DNA of 64,000 nt from Oscillospiraceae bacterium (GCA_031550325.1 JAVBOR010000018.1:270-64269); one strand, 5' to 3'. Counted from the stretch's first letter, positions 14,534 through 63,200 are shown. The notes: generated from the letters alone by a model not told the origin. Translations and numbers: made by a program.

Positions 14534-14742
14534 AAGCTGAGGCTTTCCCGGATTTACTCCTGGAAAGCCTCAGCTTGTCAAAAAAGTCCCTCGCGTCCTC
14601 TTCCTCTATCGGTTTTCACGTCGAGCCTGACGCCGAAGCCGGCAGGTCCTCGCCTCTCTGAAAACCGATAAAGATAGAACCACAACGCTTTCACGGATTT
14701 ACTCCGGGAATGCCTTTCGCCGTAAACTGCCTCAGCGCATAT
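14534..14742 (-). repeat. Modular hairpin element copy (R-Q-S plus extra Q)
   Basis: GCTTTCACGGATTTACTCCGGGAA and CGTCGAGCCTGACGCC modules; overlaps the rpiB stop codon. Confidence 0.85.
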
Positions 14743-15193
14743 TGGCAGTCTCAATGTCCAGAATTTCCTGAACCTTTGGGGTGGACGGGCCGTCCACAAA
14801 CTCAAGCCCGATCCATTCGCCCGCGATTTTCTTGGCGAGGGAGTGGCCGATAACCCGTTCGCCCATGCAGAGGACGTTGGCGTTATTGCTCAGTACCGAG
14901 CGCTCTGCCGAAAAGTTGTCGTGGCAGACCGCGGCGCGTATGCCCTTGAACTTGTTCGCCGTCATGGCCATGCCGATGCCGGTGCCGCACACCAGAATCC
15001 CGCGTTTTGTGTAGCCGCTCTCAATGATGCTCTCGCACACCCGCCCGGCAATCGTCGGGTAATTGGTGCAGTCGCCGGCGCTGTCGCAGCCCATGTTCTC
15101 CACCGTCAGGCCCTTGCCCTCAAGAAAGGAGATCAGCATGTCCTTCATGGGGACGGCCGCGTTGTCGCAGCCGATGACAATGATCTTGTCCAT
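14732..15193 (-). CDS. rpiB: RpiB/LacA/LacB family sugar-phosphate isomerase (DerI-like, inferred)
   Basis: GCDNAA, CGTGIGM, AAVCHD, SNNANVLCMGERVIG. Confidence 0.9.
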   Translation of the reverse strand: MDKIIVIGCDNAAVPMKDMLISFLEGKGLTVENMGCDSAGDCTNYPTIAGRVCESIIESGYTKRGILVCGTGIGMAMTANKFKGIRAAVCHDNFSAERSVLSNNANVLCMGERVIGHSLAKKIAGEWIGLEFVDGPSTPKVQEILDIETANMR

Positions 15194-15196
15194 CTT

Positions 15197-15841
15197 TCAG
15201 TCCTCCGTTTGCGCCAGGATTCCGTCGGCCATGGCGCAGAGGATGATGCAGCAGGAGACCGCGCCCGCGTCCAAAACCCCGCGTGACCGCTCCCCAAGCC
15301 GACTCGAACGCCCAAACTTTGCAGCCAGCTCTTTGGTGGAGTCCCGCCCGTTGGCGGCTGCCTCCTTCATGGCGGGGAGGGCCTCTGCCAGGCTTTTCCC
15401 CGCGTCGGCCGCTCCCTCAAGCGCGTCAAGCGCGGGCGAGAGCGTGTCGACCAAGGTTTTGTCGCCGACGCGCGCCTCGACAATGTCATAGAGCCCGTCA
15501 AGCCCTGCCCGGAGCATCCGCGCAAGCTCACTTGCCCCTATTTCATTAAGTGCAGCGCCCGCCCCAGCCATGTCCATGAAAACCGTCCCGTAAATCGGGC
15601 CCATAGAGCCGCCGATCTCGGTGAGCAGGAGGGTTCCCAGCTCGTCGAGCCCATCGGTGAACGAAAGGGTTCTGCCGGCGGCCCGTTCGCCGAACAGGCT
15701 AAAGCCCTTGTTCATGTTCGCGCCGTGGTCGCCGTCGCCGATCAGTCCGTCGACCTCGCTGAGGTAGGCTTTGTTTGCCTTGACTGCCTCGACCATTTTG
15801 AGCAGAACCGGCAGCCCGTCCGCGTTGTAAAATGCGCCCAT
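15197..15841 (-). CDS. dhaL: Dihydroxyacetone/erythrulose kinase ADP-binding subunit DhaL
   Basis: DGLIGDGDHG, GGSMGPIYG, GDKTLVD, FGRSS...DAGA. Confidence 0.92.
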   Translation of the reverse strand: MGAFYNADGLPVLLKMVEAVKANKAYLSEVDGLIGDGDHGANMNKGFSLFGERAAGRTLSFTDGLDELGTLLLTEIGGSMGPIYGTVFMDMAGAGAALNEIGASELARMLRAGLDGLYDIVEARVGDKTLVDTLSPALDALEGAADAGKSLAEALPAMKEAAANGRDSTKELAAKFGRSSRLGERSRGVLDAGAVSCCIILCAMADGILAQTED

Positions 15842-15850
15842 AGTGCCTCC

Positions 15851-16846
15851 TTATCTCTGCTTCAGGCCCATGCCGTAGCAGGGCGCGTCGACGAGCCGCT
15901 TGAGCTCGTCGTCGAGCTTCATGAGCGTGAGCGTCGCACCCATCATCTCCAGCGACGTGAAGTAGTTCCCAACGTAGCTCCGGTGGATGATGATTCCTTT
16001 TTCGGCGAGCAGCCGGTCGACCTCGTCAAACAGCACGTACAGCTCCATGACCGGAGTCGCGCCGAGCCCGGAGATCAGTGCGACCACCTCGTCGCCCGCG
16101 ACAAAGGGATAGTCGGGGACAATCGCCTCTACCATGCGTTTGGCCATTTGCGCAGCAGTCTCCAGCGCGCAGACCTCAATCCCCGGCTCGCCGTGGTGGC
16201 CGATGCCGACCTCCATGGTTCCCTCTTTGATCTCAAAGTTCGGATGCCCCACCGCGGGCAGGGTGCAGGGGGTCAGTCCGATGCCGATGCTGCGTGTGTT
16301 GTCGATAGCCTTCTGCGCCACCCGAATGACGTCGTCAAGGCCCGCGCCGGTCGCTGCCTGTGCGCCGCCGACCTTCCACATCAGCACTTCGCCGGCCACG
16401 CCGCGGCGCTTTTCGGCCTGATCCTTGGGCGCGGAGGCCACGTCGTCGTTGGCGATGACGGTCTTCACCGCAATATTCTCTTTTTGGGCCATCTTAATGG
16501 CCATTTTAACGTTCATGTTGTCGCCGGAGTAGTTGCCGTACAGGCAGGCTACGCCCTTGCCCTGGTCGGCCGCCCTGAACGCGTCGAGGAACGCAGCCGC
16601 GGTGGGGGAGGAGCAAATTTCGCCCACAGCGACAGCATCGCAGAGGTTTTCGCCAATGTACCCGACAAACGCCGGTTTGTGGCCGCTGCCGCCGCCTGTC
16701 ACGACGCCGACATGATCCTTTGGCATGTCCGCGCGCCTGATCACGCGGGGGTTCCCGGTTGGGGAAACAATGTCGCCGTGGACTTTTACAAAGCCCTTTA
16801 GGTACTCGTCGACAATAAAGTCGGGATCGTTCAATATGCGCTGCAT
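15851..16846 (-). CDS. dhaK: Dihydroxyacetone/erythrulose kinase subunit DhaK
   Basis: GGGSGHKPAFVG, NYSGD, RRGVAG, GIGHHGEPG. Confidence 0.92.
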   Translation of the reverse strand: MQRILNDPDFIVDEYLKGFVKVHGDIVSPTGNPRVIRRADMPKDHVGVVTGGGSGHKPAFVGYIGENLCDAVAVGEICSSPTAAAFLDAFRAADQGKGVACLYGNYSGDNMNVKMAIKMAQKENIAVKTVIANDDVASAPKDQAEKRRGVAGEVLMWKVGGAQAATGAGLDDVIRVAQKAIDNTRSIGIGLTPCTLPAVGHPNFEIKEGTMEVGIGHHGEPGIEVCALETAAQMAKRMVEAIVPDYPFVAGDEVVALISGLGATPVMELYVLFDEVDRLLAEKGIIIHRSYVGNYFTSLEMMGATLTLMKLDDELKRLVDAPCYGMGLKQR

Positions 16847-16867
16847 CCTATTCTTCCTCTCATCCAG

Positions 16868-17956
16868 TTATCGTGATAGCCCCGGAACGATGGCCACCTT
16901 AATGGAGTTGTCCGCACCCGTGGTGGCCAGCTCAAAGGCCTTTTCCCAGTCGTCCAGGCCAAACTGATGGGTTACGACGCCGTCCGTGGGCATCGAGCCG
17001 TCCTGAATCCACTTGATCACCGAGGGATAGCAGTAGGGGCTGAGGTGCGCGCCCAGAAGGTCGAGCTCCTTGCGATCGCTGATGATGGACCAGTCGACGG
17101 TGACCGGGTCCTTAAACACCGAGAACTCCACAAAACGCCCCATCTTGCGGATCATGTCCAGGCCCTGCTGCACGCTGGAGGGGTGGCCGCTGGCCTCGAT
17201 ATAGATGTCGCAGCCGTACCCGCCGGTCAGCTCCATGATCTTTTCGGTCACGTTTTCCTTTCCGGGGTTCATCACGATGCCAGCGCCAAACGCCTTGGCT
17301 TTGGCAAGGCGCGCGTCGTTGAGGTCGAGCACGATAAAGGCAGCCGGGTTGCGCTTTATGACCGCTCCGACCATTCCCAGCCCGAGCGTTCCCGCGCCCG
17401 AGAGCACAACGACGTCCTCGTTGGAGATGTCCGCGCGGTCGACGCAGTGCTTGGAGCAACCGTAGGGCTCGATCAAAAGCGCCTGCTCCAGCGGCATGTC
17501 GTCGGGGATTCTGTATTTGCGGCCCTCGTGCGGATAGCGCATGTATTCGGCCATGCCGCCGTTGACGTTGTTCTGGAAGCCGTACAGGTCGTGCTTCTGG
17601 CACATCCAGTAGCGGCCGGTCCGGCAAAACCTGCATTGCCCGCAGGGCACGATTTGCTCGGAGACAACGCGGTCGCCCACCCTAAACTCCGTCTGGGCCG
17701 GGCCAATCTCCACGACCGTGCCGACAAACTCGTGGCCGGGAACCATGGGAGCCTTGATGTAGGCCGGCTGGCCGTCCCCGCCCCAAAAGCTGGGCGCGCC
17801 GCCAAACGCCTTGGTGTCTCCGGCGCAGACGCCGCAGCCCTCTACCCTGACGATGACGTCGTCGGCGACAGCGCGGGGCGTGGGAATCATCTCCAGCCGG
17901 TAATCGCCGGGCGCGTAGGCGACAAGGGCCTTCATTTTTTCAGGCAGCTGTGACAT
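16868..17956 (-). CDS. Zn-dependent polyol dehydrogenase, erythritol/L-threitol dehydrogenase (EltD)-like
   Basis: GHEF, structural Zn CxxCxxCx7C, and TVDWSIISDRKELDLLGAHLSPYC, which I recall as EltD-like. Confidence 0.82.
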   Translation of the reverse strand: MSQLPEKMKALVAYAPGDYRLEMIPTPRAVADDVIVRVEGCGVCAGDTKAFGGAPSFWGGDGQPAYIKAPMVPGHEFVGTVVEIGPAQTEFRVGDRVVSEQIVPCGQCRFCRTGRYWMCQKHDLYGFQNNVNGGMAEYMRYPHEGRKYRIPDDMPLEQALLIEPYGCSKHCVDRADISNEDVVVLSGAGTLGLGMVGAVIKRNPAAFIVLDLNDARLAKAKAFGAGIVMNPGKENVTEKIMELTGGYGCDIYIEASGHPSSVQQGLDMIRKMGRFVEFSVFKDPVTVDWSIISDRKELDLLGAHLSPYCYPSVIKWIQDGSMPTDGVVTHQFGLDDWEKAFELATTGADNSIKVAIVPGLSR

Positions 17957-18028
17957 GGATCATTCCTCCTTTTGATGATGGTTGGTGGATGCATGCTTTG
18001 AGCGGGGCGATGCGGGCAAGGGCGCGAT

Positions 18029-19477
18029 TCAAGTGGTCGCGAGGCTGACTGCGTCCTTCCACCGCTCTCGTTTTTTAGCCCGAACTTCGGGTGCCATTTG
18101 GGGATAGTAGCGGGTTCTCTCCACCGAACTGAACAGAGCCTCCCGCGTATAGATGCCGCAGGCCATCCCGGCAAGATAGGCGGCGCCCATGACAGAGAGC
18201 TCCTCCTCCCGGCGGATGTCCATTCTGACGTTGGAGATGTCGCTTTGAAACTGCATCAGGTAGCCGTCTCTCGTGGGCCCGCCGTCGGCGAAAAGTCCCT
18301 CGATTGCCACCCCGCTGTCGCTCCGCATGGCCTGAAGGACGTCGTCAATCTGGAAAGCGATGCTCTCCTCGGCGGCTTTGATGATCTCGCTGCGTCCGGT
18401 AGTTCTGGACATCCCGCAAAGGATGGCCTTCGCGCCGTCGTTCCAGTGGGGCGCGCCAAGGCCGGAAAACGCCGGAACCAGAACCGTGGTGTCCTCCGGG
18501 TTGGCAGCCGCGAGCGCAGGCTGAATGTCCCTGTGCGAGGCAATGAGCTTAAGGTCGTCCTTAAGCCAGCTCATCACGGCGCCTGTGTAGTTGATGTTGC
18601 CCTCCAGCACATAGTCGACCGTCCCGTCGATTCCCCACGCCAGAGAGGTGGCCAGCCCGTTTTGACTGCCCGCGTATTGCCTGCCGATGTTCATCATAAT
18701 CGAGGAGCCCGTGCCATAGGTCGTCTTGACCATGCCCCTGTCGTGGCAGCCCTGTCCGAACAGCGCTCCGTGCGAATCGCCGATGACGCCGTGAATGGGG
18801 ACTTTGTGGTCAAAAAGGCCCTCCATGTCCGTGTGGCCGAAGACAGCGTTGCTGTCGCAGACCTCCGGTAATGACGCCATAGGCACGCCGAACAAAGCGC
18901 AGAGCTCTGCGTCCCACGCCAGCGTGTGCAGGTTAAACAGCTGGGTGCGCGACGCGTTGGAAAAGTCAGTCTTGAACATCTCGCCGCCGGTCAGCTTGTA
19001 CACGAGCCAGCTGTCCACGGTGCCGAGCAGGCAGCTCTCCCCCCGGGCGGCGTGCCTCAGCAGCCAGGCCATCTTCCCGGCGGGGAAATACGGGGACAGG
19101 GGAAGCCCTGTCTTCTCGAGAATATGTTTTGCGTGGGGCTGGAGAGCGTCGGTGATCTCCTTGGCGCGGGCGCACTGCCATACAACCGCCTTGTCAATGG
19201 GCAGGCCTTCTTTGTCCCAGGCGACGGTGGTCTCCCGCTGGTTGCTGATCCCGATGGCCGCGACGGCGTCCTTTGAGACGCCGGTCTGCTCGAGGACATC
19301 CCGGGCGGCTTGAATCACATTGCCGTAAATCTCCCCGGCATCGTGGGACACAAAGCCCCGGTCGCTGATGTACTGCCGGTGTTCGCGGTCAGCCCGGCCA
19401 ACAATGCCGCCGGACTCGTCAAACAAAACGGCCTTGGTTCCCTGCGTGCTTTGATCGATCCCCAAAATGTACTTCAT
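18029..19477 (-). CDS. FGGY family (glycerol kinase-like) carbohydrate kinase, apulose kinase-like
   Basis: IDQSTQGTK, ISNQRETT, TDFSNASRT, KTTYGTG, DGG. Confidence 0.85.
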   Translation of the reverse strand: MKYILGIDQSTQGTKAVLFDESGGIVGRADREHRQYISDRGFVSHDAGEIYGNVIQAARDVLEQTGVSKDAVAAIGISNQRETTVAWDKEGLPIDKAVVWQCARAKEITDALQPHAKHILEKTGLPLSPYFPAGKMAWLLRHAARGESCLLGTVDSWLVYKLTGGEMFKTDFSNASRTQLFNLHTLAWDAELCALFGVPMASLPEVCDSNAVFGHTDMEGLFDHKVPIHGVIGDSHGALFGQGCHDRGMVKTTYGTGSSIMMNIGRQYAGSQNGLATSLAWGIDGTVDYVLEGNINYTGAVMSWLKDDLKLIASHRDIQPALAAANPEDTTVLVPAFSGLGAPHWNDGAKAILCGMSRTTGRSEIIKAAEESIAFQIDDVLQAMRSDSGVAIEGLFADGGPTRDGYLMQFQSDISNVRMDIRREEELSVMGAAYLAGMACGIYTREALFSSVERTRYYPQMAPEVRAKKRERWKDAVSLATT

Positions 19478-19478
19478 T

Positions 19479-20411
19479 TCACACCTCGGCAAGCGTATCT
19501 TTTACTTTTTGGGCGATGCCGCCGGCATCCATGCCATAGTGCGCGAACACCTCGTTGTTTTCCCCCGCGATAATATGGCCGTCCGGCAGGGAGATCGGCA
19601 AAAGCCTTTTGGGGTTCTTTACCGAAAGCACCTGCGAGACAAGGCTGGACAGCCCGCCAAAGGGGCAGTGCTCCTCGACGGTGACAACCAGCTTAGCGCG
19701 CGCCGCCGCGAGAACGGCCCTCTCGTCCAGCGGCTTGAGGCAGTACATGTCTGTGACGCCGGCGCTGATATTCATGTCCCGCAGCAGGGCGGCGGCCCGT
19801 ACCGCGCGGGGAACCATCTCTCCGCAGGCGATGATCGCGGCGTCGGAGCCCTCCGAGAGGACGCACGCCCTGTCAAGCGCAAAGGGCAGGCTCTCGTCAT
19901 ACACATCCTGCGTGGCCGAGCGGCTTACCCGCACATAAGAGGGCTTTTCGTCCTGCATCAGCGCTTTTATGAGCTTTGCGGTCTGGAAGCGGTCGCTGGG
20001 CAGGTACACTCGCATGCCCGGCAGCGCGGTCATGGCGGCGACGTCCTGCAGCGAGTGGTGGGTCATCCCGAGGGCGCCGTAGCTGACCCCTCCGCTGATG
20101 CCCAGCAAAAGCACGTTGGTGCCCGAGTAGGCCACGTCGATCTTTGCCTGCTCGTAGCTTCTGGTGGAGAGAAAGCTTGCCGGCGAGGCGGCGATCACTT
20201 TCTTGCCGCAGGCGGCAAGCCCCGCGGCGACGGACACCAGATTCTGCTCGGCGATGCCGATCTCCACAAACTGCTTTGGATAGCGCTCGGCAAAGGGGGT
20301 CAGGGAGGCCGAGCCGCGCGAATCCGAGCAGAGCACGACGATATCCCTGTCCTGTTCGGCAAGGGCCATCAGGGTGTCGCAGACGGCCTGCCTGTTTGTC
20401 ATGGTGTTCAC
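19479..20411 (-). CDS. Transketolase C-terminal (pyrimidine-binding) subunit, AptB-like
   Basis: SDSRGSASL, GIAEQNL, THHSLQD, VEEH. Confidence 0.88.
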   Translation of the reverse strand: MNTMTNRQAVCDTLMALAEQDRDIVVLCSDSRGSASLTPFAERYPKQFVEIGIAEQNLVSVAAGLAACGKKVIAASPASFLSTRSYEQAKIDVAYSGTNVLLLGISGGVSYGALGMTHHSLQDVAAMTALPGMRVYLPSDRFQTAKLIKALMQDEKPSYVRVSRSATQDVYDESLPFALDRACVLSEGSDAAIIACGEMVPRAVRAAALLRDMNISAGVTDMYCLKPLDERAVLAAARAKLVVTVEEHCPFGGLSSLVSQVLSVKNPKRLLPISLPDGHIIAGENNEVFAHYGMDAGGIAQKVKDTLAEV

Positions 20412-25383: not shown

Positions 25384-26037
25384 ATGACGCTTACGCTTTC
25401 GGAGCCCTCCCTGCTCACGATCGCGGCGCCCGACGGCTCCGGCGATATCGGAGGCTCGCAGCTCTGGTACGCCGACAAATGGCAGCGCTTATCGGGCTGC
25501 GGCCCTACGGCAGCCGCCAATCTCATGTGGTATCTTGCGGGGTCGAAGCCGGCGCTCAAAGGGCTCCGCCCTGTGGACGGCACCGGCAGAGAGAGCTTCC
25601 TCGCGCTGATGCAGAGGCTTTTCGAGTGCATTACGCCGGGCCCTCAGGGCGTCAACACCGCCGCGCTGTTTGTGACGGGCGCTCTGGCCTACGCGCGCGC
25701 GCAAGGCGTTTTTCTGGAGGCGCGGACGCTTGAGTTTTCCAAGTTCCCGCGGCCCAAGCCGTCCGAGGAAAGCATGAAGACCTTCCTCACAGCGGCGCTG
25801 ACCGATGACCTTCCCGTGGCCTTTTTAAACTTGTCCAACGGTAGCCTCGGCAATCTTGAAAGCTGGCACTGGGTGACGCTGATCTCGTTTGACCCCGACA
25901 CCCTGTGCGCGGGCGCTTGCGACCAGGGCAAGATGCTTGAGCTTGACCTGGCGGCGTGGCGAAAGACCAGCGTGCTCGGCGGCGCCATGGTTGCGCTGAC
26001 CGGCGCCGCTGTCCCGGCTGCGGACGAGGAGAAATAA
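25384..26037 (+). CDS. Peptidase C39-like (papain-fold) protein
   Basis: SGCGPTAAANL (Cys) and HWVT (His). Confidence 0.7.
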   Translation: MTLTLSEPSLLTIAAPDGSGDIGGSQLWYADKWQRLSGCGPTAAANLMWYLAGSKPALKGLRPVDGTGRESFLALMQRLFECITPGPQGVNTAALFVTGALAYARAQGVFLEARTLEFSKFPRPKPSEESMKTFLTAALTDDLPVAFLNLSNGSLGNLESWHWVTLISFDPDTLCAGACDQGKMLELDLAAWRKTSVLGGAMVALTGAAVPAADEEK

Positions 26038-26040
26038 TCA

Positions 26041-26307
26041 CCCCTGTTCTTTTCCTGGATTTGCGTCGGCCTGACGCCGAAGGCGGCGGGTTCTTGCTGG
26101 ACCGAAAATCGAAAAAGATTGAACCACGAGGCTTTCACGGATTTACTCCGGGAAAGCCTTTCTCTGCAAACCGCCACAGCGGTTTGATTCTGCTCCCGCT
26201 TTGTCAAAGAACCAAATGTTCTTTGACAGCCAAACCCCCGCTTTGTCGAAGCATTGGTTCTTTGACAGCCCAAAAGGCCCTGGAATCGGAGTGATTCCAG
26301 GGCCTTT
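26041..26307 (-). repeat. Modular hairpin element, full copy (P-R-Q-S) plus extra P/Q hairpins
   Basis: TGTCAAAGAACCAAATGTTCTTTGACA at 26202-26228; Q at 26130-26158; S at about 26046-26120. Confidence 0.9.
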
Positions 26308-28580: not shown

Positions 28581-29280
28581 CTGTTTTCTCCTCCTAAACT
28601 AATCTTGAGCGTGTTTTCGGGACTGTTGGCGGGTGTCCAGTCACCTCCTTAGTTCATAGCACCCATGTATACCAATACCATTCTTCCCTGCGCATACGGA
28701 CATCTATCTTTACTTTTCGCAGGCTGTTTTTACGCTCCGGCTTGAGCGGCCGGAGCAGGGCTTGTCAGGTTTTCTCTTGCGGGGCGGCTGCATACTCTGA
28801 GTCTTTATTAGCCGCGCCGAGGCACAACCAACCAACGCAAAACCTAGATGGTGGTGCGGCCGTCCCCGGGCGACTTGACGCCCGGATAGACCACATCCAA
28901 CGCAGTTTCGCACGTGCGCGGCTCTTTTTGACATGGGGTTTCCGCCGGGGCGGCAGTGTGGGAGTGCGGTTCCTTTCGCAATGGTTTTTTTGGTGACTTT
29001 TGATAAATTATAGCATATGGCTCAATAAAATACCAGCGGTTTTGTTAAAAAGGCAAAAAAGTACAGATAATGGCGACGACGGTGCGGCATGACCGTAATC
29101 GTTTGAAAGTACAATTTTTCCGTACAATACACCCAAAGCGCCGTTCTCCATTCCGTGCCGATAACAGAACGCGCGCGGCGGCGTGTCCGCCAAAAGGGAG
29201 GCGCTTGGAAAAATGAGGAAAAAGCGGGGCGTCCGGACTGAAGCGACGATGAATAATATGCATTCGTTGCGCAAGCGCAG

Positions 29281-29366
29281 TGTGGCTAAATCTTTATCGG
29301 CTTTCGGTGAGGCAGGAATCTGCCGGCAGCGCCGTCAGGCTCGACGCAAAAACCAATAAAGCCACG
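29281..29366 (+). repeat. Modular hairpin element, S module only
   Basis: CTTTATCGGCTTT...ATCTGCCGGCAGCGCCGTCAGGCTCGACGCAAAAACCAATAAAG. Confidence 0.8.
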
Positions 29367-29477
29367 GTCGCGGTGGGCCTATTTGAGAATGAACAAGAAA
29401 ATTTAGCTGATTTCCCGGTTTGTTAACACATTATTCATATTAATCTGATATCCTGAGATTTATCTTTTGGTTAGGAT

Positions 29478-32093: not shown

Positions 32094-32144
32094 GCCTGTA
32101 TCAGGGCGCAGCCTGAAGAATCAGTCGCGCTCCCGTGCTTCGGA

Positions 32145-32340
32145 GGGATTGCGTCGCGCCAAAGAAGCCGCCGGGGTCCCCCTGCTGAACTGAAACTGCA
32201 AAGGATTTGTCCACAAGGCCCTCCGGATTCATTCCGAGAGGGCCTTTCGCTGCAAGTCGTCTCAACTGGTTAATCCGACCCGCGCTTTGTCAAAGTGCCG
32301 ACGGTTCTTTGGAGGCCCGGCGCGTCTTCGCAAAGACGCG
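32145..32340 (-). repeat. Degenerate full copy of the hairpin element (S-Q-R-P on the plus strand) plus T hairpin
   Basis: Q variant AAGGCCCTCCGGATTCATTCCGAGAGGGCCTT (32215-32246); TGTCAAAG...GGTTCTTTGG; CGCGTCTTCGCAAAGACGCG. Confidence 0.75.
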
Positions 32341-34654: not shown

Positions 34655-34946
34655 TAGACTTGCAAAGAACAGGTTCTTTGACAAAGCGAGAGCAGGATCG
34701 CGTCTTTGCGAAGACGCGCAGAGTAAGGCGTTGCGGAAGTGAATACCGCAACGCCTTGTGATTTGCTCTTTTCAGAAAACAGGCGTCAGGCTCGACGTGG
34801 TTTTGCGCAAAGGAACGAAGAGGCGGACTTTGTTTACAGGCTGAAGGCTTTCACGGATTTACTCCGGGAAAGCCTTTCTCTGCAAACCGCCACAGCGGTT
34901 TGATTCTGCCCCCGCTCTGTCAAAAAACCAAAGGTTCTTGACAGAG
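34655..34946. repeat. Two opposed copies of the hairpin element between convergent genes
   Basis: Plus copy P-T-Q'-S (34655-34845) abuts minus copy P-R-Q (34846-34946), which is nearly identical to 26130-26230. Confidence 0.9.
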
Positions 34947-34948
34947 GC

Positions 34949-36919: not shown

Positions 36920-37084
36920 GGTTACTACTTCCTTGTTTAAGCTCGTTTGTTCAGCCGCCGCTTCTGCGCAGCACGTCTTCGGCGGATTTCACAATCTCTG
37001 CAAGCGCCTGGAGCCGGCTCCCGGAACAGTCGGGAAAAACCGCGTCAAGCTCCTTGACCGATATGTGTCTTCTGCTCCTGATGC

Positions 37085-37185
37085 TGCCGGAGTTCAGGTC
37101 GTCCGGCGGGGACCGGTGCCGCCCTCAGCGTCAGGCTCGACATAAACCCCGAAAAGGTCTGGAGCGCGAAGGGTTTCTTTGACAT
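37085..37185 (+). repeat. Partial hairpin element (S module and 3' terminus)
   Basis: GCCGCCCTCAGCGTCAGGCTCGAC...GGGTTTCTTTGACA. Confidence 0.65.
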
Positions 37186-37250
37186 GCAGCAGCTTTACGG
37201 GGCCACGATTGTATTTTCGACTGAACTCAAGTATACTGTACCTTAGTCGC

Positions 37251-37441
37251 TTTGTCAAAGATCCTTCGGTTCTTTGACAAACGGGAGGGGGAAACGGTTT
37301 TGAGAAATGAATTCCCGAAACCGTTGTGGTTTATATTTTTCCTGGATTCTGTCCAGCAAGAACCTGACGCCTGTGGCGTCAGGCTCGACGCGAATCCAGG
37401 AAAAGGACGAGAGAGCGGGGGGCATTTTTGACAGGCTGAAG
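37251..37441 (+). repeat. Hairpin element copy lacking R (P-Q-S)
   Basis: Colinear with 39103-39312 and 62840-63048 apart from the R deletion; ends TTTTTGACAGGCTGAA. Confidence 0.92.
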
Positions 37442-38283: not shown

Positions 38284-38312
38284 GTTCTGCAATGCTTAAA
38301 GGGACGGAGACG

Positions 38313-39098
38313 ATGGAAATGAGTGACTATACCGAACTAAACGCCAAAACTATTGACGGCTGGGTGAAGGACGGCTGGGAGTGGGGCGTCCCGATCTCAC
38401 ACGAAGCCTATTGCAGCGCGGTGGCCGGGCAGTGGGACGTTTTTCTCACGCCCATCAGGAAGGTGCCGCACAGCTGGTTTGCGCCTTTTTTGCGCGGCGG
38501 GCGGCTGGACGGCGCAAAGCTGCTCGGGCTGGCCAGCGGCGGCGGGCAGCAGATGCCGATCTTTGCCGCCTTGGGCGCGGACTGCACCGTGCTGGATTAT
38601 GCCGACAGCCAGCTTGAGAGCGAGTTGATGGTGTCCGAGCGGGAGGGCTACGCCATCAACGTCGTCAAGGCCGACATGGCAAAGAGGCTTCCGTTTGAAG
38701 ACGCGAGCTTTGACCTGATTTTCCATCCGGTTTCCAACTGCTATGTGGAGGATGTATACCACGTCTGGAACGAGTGCTTCCGCGTGCTCAAGAAGGGCGG
38801 GGTGCTGCTTGCCGGAATGGACAATGGGCTCAACTTCCTGATAGACGATTTCTCGGCGCTCCCGATGCAAGTCCGCAACAAACTGCCGCACAATCCCCTA
38901 AAGGATCCCGAGCTATATCAAAAGTGCGTTGAGCGCGGCGAAGGAGTGCAGTTTTCGCATACGTTTGACGAGCAGATCGGCGGCCAGCTCAAGGCGGGGT
39001 TCGTTCTCAAGGACGTCTACGAGGACTCCAACAACGACCCGAACGCCATTGCCTATGGAATAGCGTCCTTTTGGGCCAGCCGAGCTGTGAAGGGCTGA
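38313..39098 (+). CDS. Class I SAM-dependent methyltransferase
   Basis: LGLASGGGQQ motif I, LPFEDASFD, RVLKKGG. Confidence 0.9.
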   Translation: MEMSDYTELNAKTIDGWVKDGWEWGVPISHEAYCSAVAGQWDVFLTPIRKVPHSWFAPFLRGGRLDGAKLLGLASGGGQQMPIFAALGADCTVLDYADSQLESELMVSEREGYAINVVKADMAKRLPFEDASFDLIFHPVSNCYVEDVYHVWNECFRVLKKGGVLLAGMDNGLNFLIDDFSALPMQVRNKLPHNPLKDPELYQKCVERGEGVQFSHTFDEQIGGQLKAGFVLKDVYEDSNNDPNAIAYGIASFWASRAVKG

Positions 39099-39100
39099 GC

Positions 39101-39490
39101 GTTGCCAAAGAACCTTCGGTTCTTTGGCAAAACGAGGGCAGGATCAAACCGCCCCAGCGGTTTGAAGGGAAACGGTTTCGAGAAATGAATTCCCGAAACC
39201 GTTGTGGTCCCTATTTATCCTGGATTCAGTCCAGCAAGAACCTGCCGCCTGCGGTGTCAGGCTCGACGCGAATCCAGAAAAAGGACGAAGGTGTAAAGCG
39301 CTTTTTTTGACAGTCAGAAGGAACCGGGTTCTTTGTAAGTGCCGGAACCGGATTAACCGTCGCGGGCGGTCTGCGGAGCATGACTTTGCGGGAGTGAATT
39401 GCGCGAAGCCATGCCATTCAGTCTTTCACGACTGTAACCCGAAGAAGGACGAGAGGGCGGGGAGTATCTTCCCGATCATTTGTAAAAGCC
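39101..39490 (+). repeat. Full hairpin element (39103-39312) followed by a degenerate tandem copy
   Basis: P-R-Q-S; the second copy keeps a Q variant with the GGAGTGAAT loop (39378-39414) and the AAGGACGAGAG 3' segment. Confidence 0.9.
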
Positions 39491-42070: not shown

Positions 42071-42247
42071 CGCGTCTTCACAAAGACGCGATCCTGTCCC
42101 CGCTTTGTCAAAGAACCAAAGGTTCTTTGACAGCTTAAAAGCTTTCCCGGATTCATTTCGGGAAAGCTTTCTTTGTAAGCCGCCTCAGCGGTTTGATTCA
42201 ACTTTCGTTTTGTCAAAGAACTGATGTCCTTTGACAGCCTGAAGGGA
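42071..42247 (-). repeat. Hairpin element copy (P-R-Q, then P-T)
   Basis: Perfect TGTCAAAGAACC-AAA-GGTTCTTTGACA at 42106-42132; starts 1 nt after the kinase stop codon. Confidence 0.9.
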
Positions 42248-45850: not shown

Positions 45851-45990
45851 CCCTTCAGGCTGTCAAAGAACCAAAGGTTTTTTGACAGCCTGCGACGAAA
45901 CCCTTATGGATTAGTCTTTTTCGGGTTCCCGTCCACCAAGTCCCCGCCGGCCCAAGCGTCAGGCGCGACGCGAATGCCGAAAAAACGCGG
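45851..45990 (+). repeat. Hairpin element copy (P-S)
   Basis: CTTCAGGCTGTCAAAGAACCAAAGGTTTTTTGACAGCCTG and GCGTCAGGCGCGACGCGAAT. Confidence 0.85.
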
Positions 45991-46053
45991 ACGCGATGGA
46001 GCCTTCGCCCGTCATATACGGTGACATACAGTGCGCCGGCTGCCCGGAGCGGC

Positions 46054-46510: not shown

Positions 46511-46667
46511 CTACTCAGTACGGCTTATATGAAGCATAACTATAAACTGGTATGTGGTATCACATGACAGAATGGCTGTCAAGTGGGCTTTGAAACGCCG
46601 CCATGCCGGAAAAGCGTTGGCATTGCTACTGCGGGATTTGTCAGCATTTCAATATTTTTGCGGTCTA

Positions 46668-46696
46668 TTGACCACACCGGACTGGTGCGGTATTAT
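46668..46696 (+). promoter_or_regulatory. sigA promoter with internal operator-like dyad for the ABC-2 operon
   Basis: TTGACC-17bp-TATTAT; ACCACACC-ggact-GGTGCGGT inverted repeat in the spacer. Confidence 0.65.
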
Positions 46697-46720
46697 TAGG
46701 ATGAATTTGTATCGAGTTTA

Positions 46721-46790
46721 GTCCGGAAAGAACCTGCCGGTGGCAGGCTCAACGTGGTTTTGCGCAAAGGAGCAAGGGGTTTCTTTGATC
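46721..46790 (+). repeat. Partial S module in the leader of the ABC operon
   Basis: AAGAACCTGCCGG...AGGCTCAACGTGGTTTTGCGCAAAGGA, matching about 34788-34814. Confidence 0.75.
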
Positions 46791-46822
46791 CACTGTCTGA
46801 AAAAATAGGAGGCAGCAAAACG

Positions 46823-49299: not shown

Positions 49300-49332
49300 C
49301 AAAATGCTCTGAGCCAAGAGGGGCGGGGACGC

Positions 49333-49425
49333 GCAAAGAGCCGCTTTCCCGGAGTGAACCCGTGAAAGCATTGTGTTTGGGTCTTTATCGGTTTTTGGTG
49401 AGGCAGGGACCTGCCGGCTCGCGCC
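49333..49425 (+). repeat. Partial hairpin element (Q plus half S)
   Basis: GCTTTCCCGGAGTGAACCCGTGAAAGC then CTTTATCGGTTTTTGGTGAGGCAGGGACCTGCCGGC. Confidence 0.8.
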
Positions 49426-49499
49426 GGGAGCGGAGACAGAACCGTGCCCCACCGTACAAGTAAAGGGAACTTGCCGAGTGTACAGGAGTTAAGCTTTTT

Positions 49500-57908: not shown

Positions 57909-58826
57909 ATGGACAAGATCACCGAGAGAATACTGGCCGATTTGGGGGATACGGCGCTGCTGGACAAGCTGCTCAGCCTACCGGGGTCCGACCTCAACTC
58001 CTTTCTGCTCAAATTGTTTGATCTGCAGGCAGCCGGCGTGGCTCCCCGGGCGCTGCTGAAGGCATATGAGCAAAACCGCTTTGCCCTGCCGAGCGCCATA
58101 GACCCGGCGGAGTATCACAGGCTGGAGGCCCATCTGCTGACGCTGGCCGGACAGATGGGGATGAGGGGCGTCCTTCTTTCTCCGGCGGCGCCTGTGGGCA
58201 GCTGCTCGGCTTTTGGCTATGTGGCGCAGAACAATGTCGTCAGCGCTTTGCGGGGGAGCGAGATCCTTTCCGACCCGACGAATATGCTGGCCATCTATGT
58301 GGCCGGTCAGCTCAAGCGAAAGGCGCTGGACAACGAGACGCCGCAGTACTTTTGCACGACCGCAAGGGTTTTGCGGGCGCAGAAGTTCCCCGAGGGGATG
58401 TTCAGCCACTTCGGGCTTTTCTGCATCGTCTCCTCCGGCAAGGACAAGGGCTCCTATTCCTGCGAAAGGGCGATGCTCATCAAGCATATGGAGTTCTATA
58501 AACAGCTTCTGCGGGCTGAATCAGGCGCAGGGCTCTCCCTCGCGCTGCGGAAACGAAGCGGGTATACGGACGGTGACGGCTTCTTCACAAGTATCGGAGG
58601 GGTCATCCGGGACGAGCTGCCCGACGTTCCGATTTCCATCGATGAGGGCGACCAAGGGAACGGCTACTACAAAGGCGTCAACTTCAAACTGAACGTTGAA
58701 AATGACGGGGCTAGCCTTGAGGTGGGGGACGGCGGTTTTGTCGACTGGATACAGAGCATGACTGGAAACGGGCGCGAGCGCTGCCTGATCAGCTGCATCG
58801 CCATTGACAGATACATGCTGCTTTGA
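57909..58826 (+). CDS. Hypothetical protein with class II aminoacyl-tRNA-synthetase-like catalytic motifs
   Basis: RVLRAQ...FSHF (motif-2-like), YY.G..F, EVGDGG..DW, ER.LIS..AIDR (motif-3-like). Confidence 0.6.
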   Translation: MDKITERILADLGDTALLDKLLSLPGSDLNSFLLKLFDLQAAGVAPRALLKAYEQNRFALPSAIDPAEYHRLEAHLLTLAGQMGMRGVLLSPAAPVGSCSAFGYVAQNNVVSALRGSEILSDPTNMLAIYVAGQLKRKALDNETPQYFCTTARVLRAQKFPEGMFSHFGLFCIVSSGKDKGSYSCERAMLIKHMEFYKQLLRAESGAGLSLALRKRSGYTDGDGFFTSIGGVIRDELPDVPISIDEGDQGNGYYKGVNFKLNVENDGASLEVGDGGFVDWIQSMTGNGRERCLISCIAIDRYMLL

Positions 58827-58835
58827 CAGTCAAAT

Positions 58836-58867
58836 GGGGCAGGCAAACCGTTAGGTTTGCCTGCCCC
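58836..58867. terminator. Bidirectional terminator-like hairpin
   Basis: GGGGCAGGCAAACC-gtta-GGTTTGCCTGCCCC between convergent stops. Confidence 0.75.
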
Positions 58868-58898
58868 GATGGCGTTCATACGTAATTTGCGCTGCCCG

Positions 58899-61103
58899 TT
58901 AACCCAGGAGCTGCTGCACGGCTACGATCATTCCTGCAAATACGATCGAGACCATCGAGAGCAGCTTGATGAGGATGTTGATCGAAGGGCCGCTTGTGTC
59001 TTTAAACGGATCGCCGACAGTGTCGCCAACGACGGCGGCCTTATGGCTATCAGAGCCTTTTCCGCCCAGATTCCCCGCCTCGACATATTTCTTGGCGTTG
59101 TCCCAGGCGCCTCCGGCGTTGGCCATCATGACGGCGAGAACAAAACCGGTAACCGTGGCGCCGGCAAGCAGGCCGATGACGCCGCCGACTCCGAGCAGAA
59201 GCCCTACGACAATCGGCGCGATAATGGCGATAAGGGTGGGCAGAACCATTTCCTTCTGGGCTGCACGGGTGCAGATGTCTACGCAGGTGGTGTAGTCAGC
59301 CTCGGCCTTTCCGGCCATGAGGCCGGTGATCTCTCTGAACTGACGGCGGACTTCCACAACAATCTTGCCCGCAGCGCGGCCGACCGCTTCCATGGTCATG
59401 GCGGAGAACAGGAACGGCAGCATGCCGCCAATAAAGAGGCCAATGAGCACTTTGGGATTGGTCAGTTGGCCTTCGAGCCCTTGCAGGAGAGAGGCGGCGA
59501 CCACTGTGCCCTCATCCGCAATTTTCTCTACCAGAAGCTTCACCTGATCGATGTAAGCGGCGATCAGCGCAAGGGCCGTCAGCGCGGCAGAGCCGATCGC
59601 AAAGCCTTTGCCTGTCGCTGCGGTGGTGTTGCCCAGCGAGTCGAGCGCGTCTGTGCGCTCACGAACTTCTTCAGGCATGCCCGACATCTCGGCAATGCCG
59701 CCGGCGTTGTCGGCAATCGGTCCGTACGCGTCGGTGGCAAGCGTGATGCCGAGCGTGGACAGCATGCCAACGGCAGAAATACCTATGCCGTAAAGGCCCA
59801 TGTTAAACGCATTGGCGTCTCCGCTGAATCCGCCGCAAAGAGCAAAGCTGGCGAATACGCTGGCGCCGACAACCAGCACAGGGATGACCGTGGACTTCAT
59901 GCCGAGCGCAAGTCCGCCGATGATCACGGTCGCCGGGCCGGTTTTGGTTGTCTCAGAGAGTTTTTGCGTGGGTTTGTAGGCGTCGGCGGTGAAATACTCC
60001 GTAAAGTACCCGATGAGCACGCCCGCTGCCAATCCCGACAACACAGCGCCGTATACGCCGAGGTGTTCCGAACCCATGAGGAAGTAGATCACCGGGAAGG
60101 CCAGAACGGCGATGAGTCCCGCGGCAATGTAAACGCCTCTGCGCAGTGCGCTGAGAAGCACCTTCTGATCGGTGTTCTCGCCTGAGCGGACAAACCAGGT
60201 GCCGATCAGCGAGCAAAGAGTGCCAAGTCCGGCAAGGACCATCGGCACGATCGCGCTGCGGTACGGACTCATGCCGCCGCCAAAGCTGAACATGGCGGCA
60301 GCCGCGAGGGAAATGGTGGCGACGATGGAGCCGACATAGGACTCGTACAGGTCAGCGCCCATGCCCGCAACATCACCGACGTTATCGCCAACGTTGTCGG
60401 CAATGACCGCCGGGTTGCGCGGATCGTCTTCGGGAATGCCGGCCTCAACCTTGCCAACAAGGTCGGCGCCGACGTCGGCAGCTTTGGTAAAGATACCGCC
60501 GCCAACGCGGGCAAACAGCGCCATGGAGGACGCGCCCATGCCAAAGGTCAGCATCGCGGAAGAAATCTCAGTGATCTGCAGCGTCGGATTGGCCAGGTAT
60601 TCGGCTCCGGAAAAGAAGACGTACCGAAGCAGATAGTACCAGATGGACAGGTCAAGCAGGCCGAGGCCAACCACGACAAAGCCCATAACCGAGCCCGCGG
60701 AAAAGGCGACGCGAAGGCCTCTGTTCAGCCCTTCGCTTGCGGCCTGGGCGGTACGGCAGTTCGCGGCCGTGGCGACCCGCATGCCGATAAAGCCCGAAAG
60801 GCCGGAGAAAAAGCCGCCTGTAATGAATGCAAACGGAACAAACGGATTGAGCACTTTGAAGCCGTACGCCAGAACCGCAAGAATGATGAACAGACCGATG
60901 AAGAAGAGTCCCACGCCTTTATACTGACGCTTTAAGTACGCGTTGGCGCCCTTCCTGATGCTGTCGGATATACGGCTCATCACTTCGCTGCCCTTGGATA
61001 CTTTCATGACCTTTTTTGCCTGGAAAAATGCGAAGATCAGTGCGAGGATGGATGCCACCGGGGTAATGGCAAATAAGGCGTCTACAAGCTGCTCAGAAAC
61101 CAT
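58899..61103 (-). CDS. hppA: Membrane-bound K+-dependent (probably Na+-translocating) pyrophosphatase
   Basis: DVGADLVGKVE, DNVGDNVGD, DAYGP..DNAGG, GNTTAA (Ala variant), DTVGDPFKD. Confidence 0.93.
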   Translation of the reverse strand: MVSEQLVDALFAITPVASILALIFAFFQAKKVMKVSKGSEVMSRISDSIRKGANAYLKRQYKGVGLFFIGLFIILAVLAYGFKVLNPFVPFAFITGGFFSGLSGFIGMRVATAANCRTAQAASEGLNRGLRVAFSAGSVMGFVVVGLGLLDLSIWYYLLRYVFFSGAEYLANPTLQITEISSAMLTFGMGASSMALFARVGGGIFTKAADVGADLVGKVEAGIPEDDPRNPAVIADNVGDNVGDVAGMGADLYESYVGSIVATISLAAAAMFSFGGGMSPYRSAIVPMVLAGLGTLCSLIGTWFVRSGENTDQKVLLSALRRGVYIAAGLIAVLAFPVIYFLMGSEHLGVYGAVLSGLAAGVLIGYFTEYFTADAYKPTQKLSETTKTGPATVIIGGLALGMKSTVIPVLVVGASVFASFALCGGFSGDANAFNMGLYGIGISAVGMLSTLGITLATDAYGPIADNAGGIAEMSGMPEEVRERTDALDSLGNTTAATGKGFAIGSAALTALALIAAYIDQVKLLVEKIADEGTVVAASLLQGLEGQLTNPKVLIGLFIGGMLPFLFSAMTMEAVGRAAGKIVVEVRRQFREITGLMAGKAEADYTTCVDICTRAAQKEMVLPTLIAIIAPIVVGLLLGVGGVIGLLAGATVTGFVLAVMMANAGGAWDNAKKYVEAGNLGGKGSDSHKAAVVGDTVGDPFKDTSGPSINILIKLLSMVSIVFAGMIVAVQQLLG

Positions 61104-61320
61104 ACATCTCTCTCCCTATGTTTTTTTTAGGAATGACCAAAAATCCCCTACTTATTATACATACAATAATTTGAAAAGCAAGGGCAAATTTGAACAAACT
61201 GTGAATTGGGCTAAAATTCTGGCCCTGCCGCGCTTTTTGCGCCCTGCCGCACTTTTTGCGCCACGCCGCGCCCTGAAAAGAGTAAAAAACGGGGAAAGGG
61301 TTTCACTGAAAAGTCAACCG

Positions 61321-61349
61321 TTGTCATCCGGTCGCCCGCGATGTATAAT
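61321..61349 (+). promoter_or_regulatory. sigA promoter
   Basis: TTGTCA-17bp-TATAAT with extended TG. Confidence 0.75.
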
Positions 61350-61400
61350 GAACTCTATGAAGCAAAGCCGCACAGTATGATCGAAAAGGAGCTGCTGATC

Positions 61401-62837
61401 ATGGCGATGAAACCCTTTGCACTGGATTACGATCCCGGGAGCATAGAGGCGGGCATTCTGCATTTTGGGGTTGGAAATTTCCACAGGGCGCATCAGGCAT
61501 ACTATACAAACAAGCTTCTCTCACAGGACGGCCAGAAGGGCTGGGGCATATGCGGCGCCATGATTCTGGACAGAGACGAAAAAATATTTCGCGGGCTCAA
61601 GGCGCAGGGCGGGCAATATGGCCTGACCGTTTTTGGGCGTTCGGGAGACGACGAGTACCATCAGATCGGCGCCCTGACGGAACTGTACTGGGCCGGGGAA
61701 AATGCGGCAGCCATCATCGATAAGGTGGCGGAAGCTTCGATAAAGATCATCACCCTCACGATTACCGAGGGCGGCTACAATCTCGCGGGCGGGACCGGAG
61801 AGTTTGATTTTTCCCGCGAGGACATTCTTTACGATTTGAGGTTCCCCGAAAGACCGCGGACTGTCTTTGGCTATGTTGCGGCCGGGCTGCGCAAAAGGAT
61901 GGAGGCAAACGCCGGGCCGGTTGCCATCCTGAGCTGCGACAACCTTGTGCACAACGGGAACACCTGCAAGAAGTCGTTTCTCTCGTTTTTGGAGAGGGCC
62001 GACGCGCTGCTCTGGAGTTGGGCAAAGGAGCATGTCAGCTTCCCGAACTGCATGGTCGACCGCATCACGCCCGCGACCCTGCCGGACGACATCTCCAAGT
62101 TCTCTTCGCTGAACGGACACGAGGATCTTGTCCCTGTGTACTGCGAGGATTATGTGCAATGGGTGATCGAGGACGATTTTCCCGCCGGGCGGCCTGCCTG
62201 GGAGCGCGTCGGGGTTGAGTTTACCGACGACGTGTCGAAATATGAGTCCATGAAGCTGGGATATGTCAACTCCACACACCAAATGCTGTCGTTTCCAGGG
62301 CTTCTGGCGGGTTACCGCAGAGTGGACGAGGCCCTTGACGATAAGCGTATTGCCTCCTATTTGCGGCGGTACATGGACGAGGATGTGACGCCCTATCTGG
62401 CACCGCCGCCGAACACCAGCCTGGACACGTATAAGGCGACTTTTATGGAGCGCCTGAAGAACAAAGCAGTCAGCGACCAGCTCTCCCGGCTTTGCTTTGA
62501 CGCCGCCAATAAAATCCCGGTGTACATGGCGCCGACCATGAGCGCCATGCTTCGTGCCGGCGCGGAGCTGAAGCGCGTCGCGTTTTTGGTGGCCGCTTAT
62601 CGGTTGTATCTGCGCCGGGGCAGTGACGACAAAGGCGTTGCCTATGCGGTGGACGATCCCAAACTCACGAAAAGCGATTGGGTGCTGATTGGCGGGGACG
62701 AGCAGGACTTTCTGGGCCTGTCCTGCTTTGGCGGCCTGCGGCTGGCGGACTCGCCGCGTTTCGTAGCGCTCTATCTGGAAAGCTGCCAAAGCGTCGAGGA
62801 AAAGGGCGTTCTGGCGACAATCGAGGGACTTTTATAG
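61401..62837 (+). CDS. Mannitol dehydrogenase family (mannitol 2-DH/fructuronate reductase-like)
   Basis: HFGVGNFHRAHQA, TITEGGY, SCDN, MVDRITP, QWVIEDDF. Confidence 0.92.
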   Translation: MAMKPFALDYDPGSIEAGILHFGVGNFHRAHQAYYTNKLLSQDGQKGWGICGAMILDRDEKIFRGLKAQGGQYGLTVFGRSGDDEYHQIGALTELYWAGENAAAIIDKVAEASIKIITLTITEGGYNLAGGTGEFDFSREDILYDLRFPERPRTVFGYVAAGLRKRMEANAGPVAILSCDNLVHNGNTCKKSFLSFLERADALLWSWAKEHVSFPNCMVDRITPATLPDDISKFSSLNGHEDLVPVYCEDYVQWVIEDDFPAGRPAWERVGVEFTDDVSKYESMKLGYVNSTHQMLSFPGLLAGYRRVDEALDDKRIASYLRRYMDEDVTPYLAPPPNTSLDTYKATFMERLKNKAVSDQLSRLCFDAANKIPVYMAPTMSAMLRAGAELKRVAFLVAAYRLYLRRGSDDKGVAYAVDDPKLTKSDWVLIGGDEQDFLGLSCFGGLRLADSPRFVALYLESCQSVEEKGVLATIEGLL

Positions 62838-63200
62838 TTTGTCAAAGAACCCGCGGTTCTTTGACAAAACGAGAGCCGGATCAAACCACTGCGGCGGTTT
62901 GAAGGGAAACGGTTTTGAGGAATTAATTCCCGAAACCGTTGTGGTTCATATTCTTCCTGGATTCAGTCCAGCAAGAACCTGCCGCCTGCGGCTTCAGGCT
63001 TGACGTGAATCCAGAAAAAAGACGAAGGCGTAAAGTGCTTTCTTGACAGTCTGATCAAACCGCTTCGGCGGTTTGCAAAGAAAGGCTTTCCCGGAGTGAA
63101 TCCGTGAAAGCCTTTTGTTTCAATTCTTTGCGTAAACCCAGTTGGGCAAGGGCCTGCCGGCTGGTGCCGTCAGGCCCTGACATGAAAACCGAAAAAGGAA
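62838..63200 (+). repeat. Full hairpin element (62840-63048) plus tandem R-Q-S copy
   Basis: Begins 2 nt after the stop; high identity to 39103-39312 by eye. Confidence 0.92.

Follow-up and report, generated by a model that had tools for sequence, protein, structure and literature searches.

Introduction

Among insertion sequences (ISs) of the IS1182 family, IS1272 and its composite TnSha1 of staphylococci target stem-loops of variable sequence, mostly terminators, without primary-sequence specificity, and they delete or replace the target hairpin with no duplication (PMC5678879, PMC4923244). Alternative pathway b in Fig. 13 of PMC5678879, drawn but not observed for IS1272, would instead duplicate the hairpin in full. 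Duplication of variable-length inverted repeats is on record for the IS30-type IS1630 of Mycoplasma fermentans, going by the title of Calcutt et al. (1999, J Bacteriol 181:7597) as cited in PMC7648426. Here we describe a hairpin-rich element of ~210 bp that recurs between the genes of a 64,000-nt stretch of DNA from an Oscillospiraceae bacterium (JAVBOR010000018.1:270-64269 of GCA_031550325.1; hereafter the window). The initial annotation had offered the repeats as an undescribed structured RNA or as a system of repetitive extragenic palindromes (REP) and MITEs (miniature inverted-repeat transposable elements). Our analysis indicates that they are very probably non-coding MITEs, passengers of an IS1182-family DDE transposase that would move them in trans.

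The window corresponds to C55:270-64269 of a 2.04-Mb assembly in 69 contigs (G000; 58.6% G+C, 95% complete). The closest relatives of a housekeeping protein are from uncultured gut Clostridia (67-68% identity), and the sequence is present only in runs from an invertebrate-gut metagenome study.

Results

Structure and termini of the element

The element carries no transposase gene and ends in terminal inverted repeats of 15-16 bp (CAGRCTGTCAAARAA). Its parts are the hairpins P, R or T, Q and S followed by a tail, and hidden Markov models of the single modules found them in the window copies in the order P-(R or T)-Q-S-tail, just as first proposed. In aligned full copies the P end carries CAGRCTGTCAAAGAA and the tail TTYTTTGACAGYCTG; as inverted repeats of 15-16 bp the two termini read CAGRCTGTCAAAGAA and TTTTTTGACAGYCTG. 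The P palindrome, TGTCAAAGAACC-N3-GGTTCTTTGACA, matched six times in the window when shuffles predicted 0, and the S inner hairpin matched 15 times against an expected 0.2. A covariance model (R1), built from the alignment of 73 distinct near-full-length genomic copies and run unfiltered over the window, recovered all 16 loci of the initial annotation, its scores ranging between 22 and 216 bits; the named copies are therefore real. Direct-repeat families connect these loci within the window.

A partner insertion sequence of the IS1182 family

As the initial annotation had stated, there is no transposase within the window. A partner was sought by a DDE_Tnp_1_6 profile search across genomes of the taxonomic family, and a match at C15:925-1281 falls in a 464-aa open frame at the start of G000 contig C15. 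The sequence at the 3' end of this frame, ...GCCTTTCTTTGACAGGCTG, is the terminus of the MITE. Over its first 35 nt, C15 is the reverse complement of C11:1-35, contig C11 gives the left end CAGCCTGTCAAAAAAGTCGCCAAAAGGCGACTTTTTTGGTATAATGG, and the C11/C15 join is spanned by a 282-nt contig of DNA run X1 and by a 339-nt contig of an RNA run. The reconstructed IS, rc(C11:1-140)+C15:1-1402, has 1,507 bp, 47% G+C, 16-bp inverted termini and a single open reading frame of 478 aa whose stop codon lies inside the right terminus. This length falls within the 1.3-2 kb range of the IS1182 family in ISfinder. The 478-aa transposase scores 380 bits (cut-off 270; E 2e-113) against the NCBIfam IS1182 equivalog NF033551 and contains the domains DUF772 (PF05598), DDE_Tnp_1 (PF01609) and DDE_Tnp_1_6 (PF13751).

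The IS ends that match the MITE are CAGCCTGTCAAAAAAG and CTTTCTTTGACAGGCTG: the right end agrees with the MITE P end at 14 of 15 positions and the left end with the MITE tail at 15 of 16. A short hairpin directly follows the 'AAAAAAG' terminus both in the IS (GTCGCC-aaaa-GGCGAC) and in the main MITE subfamily (GCGC-ttt-GCGC). The IS is found at two contig ends of G000, and its depth in the DNA run is 240-264, compared with 20-23 for its flanks, or roughly 11-12 copies if all of them come from the G000 organism. Public metagenomes contain more than 7,400 relatives of the transposase, most of them on contigs the size of an IS, and the closest of these is 82% identical.

A minor MITE subfamily has another P hairpin and other termini (CTGTAGACAAACC-ttcga-TTTGTCTACAG) around the same T-Q-S core as the main family. 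Its copies lie at C46:76885, C46:38829, C68:6937, C32:13768, C24:36352 and other positions, none of them in the window. The terminus CTGTAGACAAACC is identical at 12 of 13 positions to that of the IS1182-type IS in the related genome G011 (CTGTTGACAAACC), which points to MITE subfamilies following different IS1182 variants.

Two other candidates for the autonomous partner were rejected. Genes lying between element termini 0.6-4 kb apart proved, in the ten best cases, to be housekeeping genes (among them those for a MATE efflux pump, phosphofructokinase and topoisomerase I), and the DDE_Tnp_1_6 matches on C28 and C36 come from the remains of another IS. These DDE transposase remnants (C28:133-402 and C36:35-178) are common to two contig starts, are unlinked to the hairpin elements and have three in-frame TGA codons in one copy.

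Abundance and genomic setting

The G000 genome contains 145 P hairpins and 1,036 non-overlapping module matches in 369 loci, or 2.2% of the DNA, in line with the earlier description of a genome-wide, modular, hairpin-rich element. S is borne by 239 copies, of which ~140 extend to the P end and are thus near full length, while ~100 are partial. Given a median pairwise identity of 68% among full copies, the family is old and diverse. Gene calls exclude 97% of module bases. Elements occupy 90 of 143 convergent intergenic regions (63%), but only 137 of 846 tandem (16%) and 23 of 181 divergent ones (13%). A module is found within 150 nt of 92 of the 138 contig ends, which indicates that the repeats break the assembly.

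Truncated copies begin preferentially at the 5' boundaries of the R/T, Q and S hairpins. A LINE-like series of 5' truncations, as left by retro-transposition, was rejected because the truncation points cluster at hairpin boundaries and are not spread. Solo P hairpins as minimal elements made of two terminal repeats were likewise rejected: only 4 of 38 carry both outer tips, so most are fragments.

Insertion at hairpin feet

A stem of at least 7 bp whose 3' foot lies 0-4 nt from the tip abuts 99 of 257 outer termini (38.5%), whereas the same is true of 3.6% of 1,560 control positions taken 20-100 nt after genes, an about eleven-fold lower rate. Seventy of these 99 hairpins are unique, terminator-like stems, and the other 29 belong to other copies, being their Q, R, T or P hairpins.

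The IS shows the same setting. In G000 its insertion point separates a 6S RNA gene's terminator hairpin from the T-tract, and a 21-nt hairpin, AGAGGACACAATGTGTCCTCT, flanks it on either side, the loop pointing the same way in both. A further left end of the IS, where contig C18 ends, lies against the 3' foot of a MITE's T hairpin. The IS of G008, with termini CAGACTGTCGACAAATAGCT, has AGCGTCATTCGACGCT on both flanks. The P0037-encoding IS of a sewage or digester organism, which has the same termini as the G000 IS and lies between convergent genes, is flanked on both sides by a 23-nt hairpin, GAG(G/T)GGAGGCAGCGCCTCCCCTC. A hairpin abuts one IS end in G037, L117 and L126, where the other flank differs (G037) or is cut off (L117 and L126), and the IS of G011 lies between the two arms of a hairpin. 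Altogether a hairpin is present at the IS termini in G000, G008 and G037 and at loci L117, L118 and L126.

Among the MITEs, direct duplications of 23-41 nt that hold a whole hairpin flank the copies at C64:13776, C27:21393, C7:8357, C30:9261 and C63:59024, while mismatched (shuffled) flank pairs gave a duplication of at least 14 nt in 1 of 120 cases. Overall, the duplicated target hairpins of the G000 IS, two related ISs and five MITEs measure about 18-41 nt. No fixed short target-site duplication was found at MITE copies.

Several observations concern the loci around these insertions. The 6S RNA gene (C11:173-362, minus strand; locus L111, outside the window) matches RF00013 with 62.5 bits against a gathering threshold of 46.4, and an RNA contig runs from its flank across the hairpin and 153 nt into the IS. 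An IS copy seen in run contigs only (L111/L112) has an rrn-type terminator hairpin on both sides; the hairpin beside the CTTTTCTTG flank has a flipped loop, with TAA where TTA is expected, which is unexplained. A ~130-nt segment ending in this rrn-type hairpin, CCACCCGCTAAGCGGGTGG-ATGATTAC, occurs at five contig ends (C39:110 and the ends of C42, C48, C56 and C67), which are probably the ends of rrn operons, and each copy of the segment is followed by a different MITE fragment.

Proposed mechanism

The IS1182 transposase gene and the MITEs share their termini, and both kinds of element display enrichment at hairpin feet, whole-hairpin duplications and nested insertions. From this we infer trans-mobilisation of the MITEs by the 478-aa transposase. 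The transposase would recognise extruded stem-loops by their shape. Element ends would be joined at the 5' feet of the cruciform, so that gap repair would copy the entire hairpin; other events would leave the hairpin on one side only. Each MITE would add four or five hairpins to the genome and so allow later insertions inside older copies, and nested insertion together with hairpin duplication would yield the truncated, swapped and tandem modules that recall bacterial interspersed mosaic elements (BIMEs). Insertion at the hairpin feet of older copies, with the hairpin sometimes copied, thus accounts for the BIME-like mosaic. An insertion past the end of a gene would keep a terminator (hairpin and T-tract) on the far side, so that it would be tolerated and the element would end up in the 3' untranslated region (UTR).

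Fold, covariation and transcription

The fold was tested on a MAFFT alignment with an explicit five-helix structure. Standard pairs occupy 88.3% of cells, compared with 76% in column shuffles and 34-52% with slid partners, and none of 500 shuffles reached any of the measures. Changes on both sides were seen in 41 of 51 base pairs; compensatory change thus keeps the stems. The copy at 39099..39313 folds far better than its shuffles on both strands (z -5.8 and -6.8). Almost no variation is seen in the internal loops of S or the apical loop of Q, and two mismatches, a C.T in Q and a C.T in the S inner stem, are conserved. On the P-to-tail strand there are 148 A.C mismatches and 79 G.T, so that wobble pairs favour the fold of the complementary strand, although copies related by descent share these mismatches, so that the counts do not represent independent events.

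Such structural constraint would be expected if the MITE also had a host or cis function, with its Q-S core acting as single-stranded DNA or RNA in the role of a 3'-UTR stabiliser, a terminator module or a transposition scaffold. The same reading draws support from the position of copies in 3' regions, from their presence in metatranscriptome contigs and from a core that outlasts its P hairpin and termini in other genera (see below). We nevertheless regard it as unlikely. Relative to the upstream gene, copies in tandem contexts are oriented nearly at random (60 co-oriented, 44 opposed), RNA depth, after correction for copy number, does not exceed that of the genes nearby, and the element is missing from most genomes of the family and patchy within a genus. 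Moreover, covariation counts are inflated by descent, palindromes can self-correct via template switching, and an active subfamily that has spread recently could give the appearance of conservation.

It is very improbable that the copies are independently transcribed genes for structured small RNAs. Four stable, covarying hairpins would suit such genes, and the tail hairpin and T-run of one subfamily (GCGCAAAGCGCTTTTTT) resemble a terminator. They would also be undescribed: Rfam 15 at gathering thresholds gave no match in the whole window, and a permissive search over two tandem copies gave a best E of 2 or more, so that the family is unrecognised, as initially reported. No conserved promoter accompanies the copies, however; the P hairpin or the tail TTGACA was considered as a promoter -35 box and rejected, no conserved -10 box following it and the motif being the transposon terminus. 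Copies lie in both orientations relative to genes, occur in truncated, nested and tandem form, are patchily distributed in relatives and end in terminal inverted repeats matching those of an IS. In metatranscriptome run X2 the elements have a contig depth of ~80, against ~570-820 in the DNA run, and flanking genes ~5 against ~25, whereas 6S RNA reaches 4,000-13,800 over a DNA depth of ~20. The RNA/DNA ratios are thus ~0.1 for the elements, ~0.2 for flanking genes and several hundred for 6S RNA, and, counted per copy of DNA, expression of the elements does not exceed that of their neighbours; the argument is coarse, as these are assembler contig depths. On these grounds of orientation, expression and distribution, the structured-RNA interpretation of the initial annotation finds no support.

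Movement as single-stranded DNA by a Y1 (HUH) transposase, as for REP/BIME or IS200/IS605-type elements, is extremely improbable. The elements are hairpin-rich, extragenic and arranged in a BIME-like mosaic, most copies lack target duplications, and a strand bias in wobble pairs would be expected for single-strand transposition. The genome also has one Y1_Tnp gene, on C52, with R-Q modules ~100 nt upstream. Its product, however, scores 124 bits for IS200 and only 29.6 bits for the REP-associated model (cut-off 80), and the gene has an unrelated end hairpin of its own and is not flanked by inverted modules. This IS200-type tnpA (C52:9750-10118; L004) is low in G+C, is truncated where the contig stops, has a left-end hairpin of the usual type and bears no relation to the repeat family. 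No REP-associated tyrosine transposase (RAYT) was found in G000, where this was the one Y1 match, although at 95% completeness the absence is not absolute. IS200/IS605-derived elements have no terminal inverted repeats, carry differing subterminal hairpins and make no target duplication, and HUH enzymes are not known to make long direct target duplications; the present family has both true terminal inverted repeats common to a DDE-type IS and long direct target duplications. The REP-MITE label of the initial annotation is therefore apt in its second half, the termini matching those of an IS1182-family IS, and is not supported in its REP/RAYT half, the sole Y1 protein being an ordinary IS200 TnpA.

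Copies in the window

The best full copy, P-R-Q-S-tail, lies at 39099..39313 on the plus strand (R1 215.6 bits) and begins 1 nt past the stop codon of gene 38292-39098; a diverged tandem copy follows directly on its 3' side at 39314..39470 (plus strand; 41.3 bits, E 2e-10). A second full P-R-Q-S-tail copy at 62836..63049 (plus strand; 208.2 bits) is likewise followed by a tandem copy, a P-less R-Q-S unit at 63050..63225 (plus strand; 90.1 bits), which joins the right end (GACAGTCTG) of its neighbour at the foot of its own R hairpin. The single stop-codon overlap of the window is found here, at 62835-62837, where one TAG serves both as the stop codon of a dehydrogenase-like gene (61341-62837) and as the outer TAG at the element terminus; the insertion may have replaced the original end of this gene. 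Together with the share of module bases outside called genes, this agrees with the description of the copies as intergenic except for one stop-codon overlap. On the minus strand, a full P-R-Q-S copy stands at 26021..26232, immediately past the stop of gene 25384-26037 (182.6 bits; modules S<, Q<, R, P), and a full-length but diverged copy at 32109..32318 (73.2 bits; repeat family D2/D3) adjoins a T hairpin at 32321-32340.

Other copies lack one end or one hairpin. The copy at 37249..37434 (plus strand; 175 bits) has P, Q, S and the tail without an R/T hairpin and ends in ...TTTTTGACAGGCTG. At 14575-14775 on the minus strand lies a near-full Q-S-tail copy with a diverged P end (145.3 bits, E 1e-39; modules Q<, Z<, S<, Q<); an extra Q hairpin beside it at 14539-14571 explains the start at 14534 that was initially given, the joint feature being 14539..14775. 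A T-Q-S copy without a canonical P end at 34656..34839 (plus strand; 116.1 bits; T at 34699-34718) is abutted by a partial P-R-Q copy in the opposite orientation at 34802..34947 (minus strand; 98 bits; modules Q<, R, P), which is 96% identical to 26129-26223. At 42071..42240 (minus strand; 88.7 and 27.6 bits) there is a mosaic T-P-Q-R-P with two P ends, that is, nested or partial copies.

The remaining loci, all on the plus strand, are short or weak. They comprise an S module with tail at 29273..29389 (65.5 bits; S> at 29297-29354), a degenerate copy at 37002..37185 that retains S and the TTTGACA end (36.3 bits, E 6e-9; S> at 37101-37152), a short P and S copy at 45857..46011 (67 bits; P 45861-45887, S> 45921-45980), and Q with a degenerate S at 49305..49445 (49 bits; Q> at 49342-49373). 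The weakest, at 46643..46791 (21.8 bits, E 7e-5), is a partial copy with an S subtype whose outer stem is GTGGTTTTGCGC, and is 91% identical to 34782-34814 (repeat family D8).

Relatives

None of 30 relatives contains the exact P pattern. R1, with 79 candidates scored per genome, finds the family in 10 of the 30 genomes of the taxonomic family (20 lack it) and in five of nine genera, and within one genus its matches number 49, 4, 3, 2, 0, 0 and 0. When a same-genus genome was compared with a 2.5-kb stretch of the window, only the element showed DNA similarity: identity over the S region is 82-91% in more than 20 places and the Q-S core is ~86% identical, while coding DNA no longer aligns. In the copies of this genome and of other genera, the loop of Q, the internal loops of S and AAAGGACG are all retained, whereas the P hairpin and the termini change with compensation, for example GATGACAAAC.../...GTTTGTCATC.

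The same-genus locus L088 (G001:C24) also holds, at 1601-1790, an unrelated-looking element of ~180 bp with similar termini, CAGTCTGTAGACAAAG ... GTTTGTCAGCAGCCTG. It adjoins a copy of the main family, and copies of a single terminator-like hairpin, CCCCGCGGGGCCGAT, flank both.

Discussion

The hairpin repeats of this genome are best explained as selfish DNA, of a kind already known, and not as a new RNA gene. Neither the RNA nor the REP reading finds support; the evidence strongly supports MITEs, for which a partner is now named. Several points nevertheless weigh against it. The MITE interior (R/T, Q and S) has no similarity to the IS, and its conservation between genera exceeds that of the termini, a pattern for which simple parasitism does not account. 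That Q-S should outlast the termini is odd because the transposase must bind the termini, and the strong hairpin covariation together with the conservation of Q-S across genera is unexplained. The hairpin duplicate is kept by only ~5 of roughly 20-40 full copies, the rest showing none above chance, and in two of the five copies that duplicate a hairpin the 3' end is non-canonical. The duplicates may be missing because of age, nested insertions at a later time or an outcome that leaves the hairpin on one side. No transposition event and no empty site was seen, the same-genus genome being too diverged and the species being present in only one DNA run. Co-occurrence of transposase and MITE across relatives gave no clear correlation either way, most of the genomes being fragmentary metagenome-assembled genomes, and the IS copy number, taken from metagenome depth, could include other organisms.

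These points leave some room for two linked readings, both of which we hold to be doubtful: that the core is not passive cargo, Q-S being a folded scaffold under selection, and that the body has been assembled from captured duplicated hairpins. As a scaffold, the Q-S core may be a single-stranded DNA or RNA used by the transposition machinery or by the host, in 3'-end formation or mRNA protection. If the capture reading were true, the family would record a pathway of integration at cruciform feet that has so far only been drawn for IS1182 elements.

The assignment of the repeats to MITEs removes a tempting false lead, as hundreds of covarying four-hairpin repeats are not a new RNA class. The 478-aa IS1182-family transposase and its ~210-bp passenger form a testable pair for shape-based choice of hairpins by a DDE transposase, and could serve to study why hairpins are duplicated whole here when IS1272 deletes them. 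Elements that make up 2% of a genome, break it at 92 of 138 contig ends and occupy most convergent gaps also matter for the assembly and annotation of gut Clostridia and for the prediction of terminators and 3' UTRs.

Compared with known systems, the family resembles enterobacterial REP/BIME sequences and REPINs (PMC3116915) in being extragenic, palindromic, enriched after gene ends and present in hundreds of copies as mosaics of alternating modules. Unlike REP, with its 20-40-nt units and Y1 RAYT gene (PMC3116915), it has a ~210-bp unit with terminal inverted repeats, a DDE transposase and no RAYT. With the Correia/NEMIS elements of Neisseria and RUP, BOX and SPRITE of pneumococcus, bacterial MITEs whose transcripts fold, it shares small size, absence of coding sequence, terminal inverted repeats, modularity (boxA-B-C) and intergenic location (PMC3049150, PMC3184786), as well as co-transcription with neighbours and mobilisation in trans by an IS transposase (PMC3049150, PMC3184786). 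Their sequences are unrelated to the present element, and they make short fixed target duplications at sequence motifs (e.g., TA); targeting of hairpin feet or copying of whole hairpins is not known for them, unlike for the element described here. Long variable target duplications that preserve adjacent genes are also reported for IS1630 and ISMhom-1. Both are autonomous and belong to the IS30 family, whereas the present partner belongs to the IS1182 family. To our knowledge, neither has an abundant miniature derivative or a structured internal core.

A search of the literature on IS1182 together with MITEs found no high-copy derivative of ~210 bp, and in the literature searched neither whole-hairpin duplication by an IS1182-type element nor a very abundant, structurally conserved miniature derivative is described. 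The closest relatives remain IS1272 and TnSha1, which have in common with the present system the transposase family (IS1182 equivalog with DUF772, DDE_Tnp_1 and DDE_Tnp_1_6), the 16-bp terminal inverted repeats, the stem-loop targets and the multiple insertions at hairpins of earlier copies. In contrast to them, the whole hairpin is here often duplicated, and the main population is a gene-less derivative of ~210 bp, present in hundreds of copies and built around a conserved multi-hairpin core.

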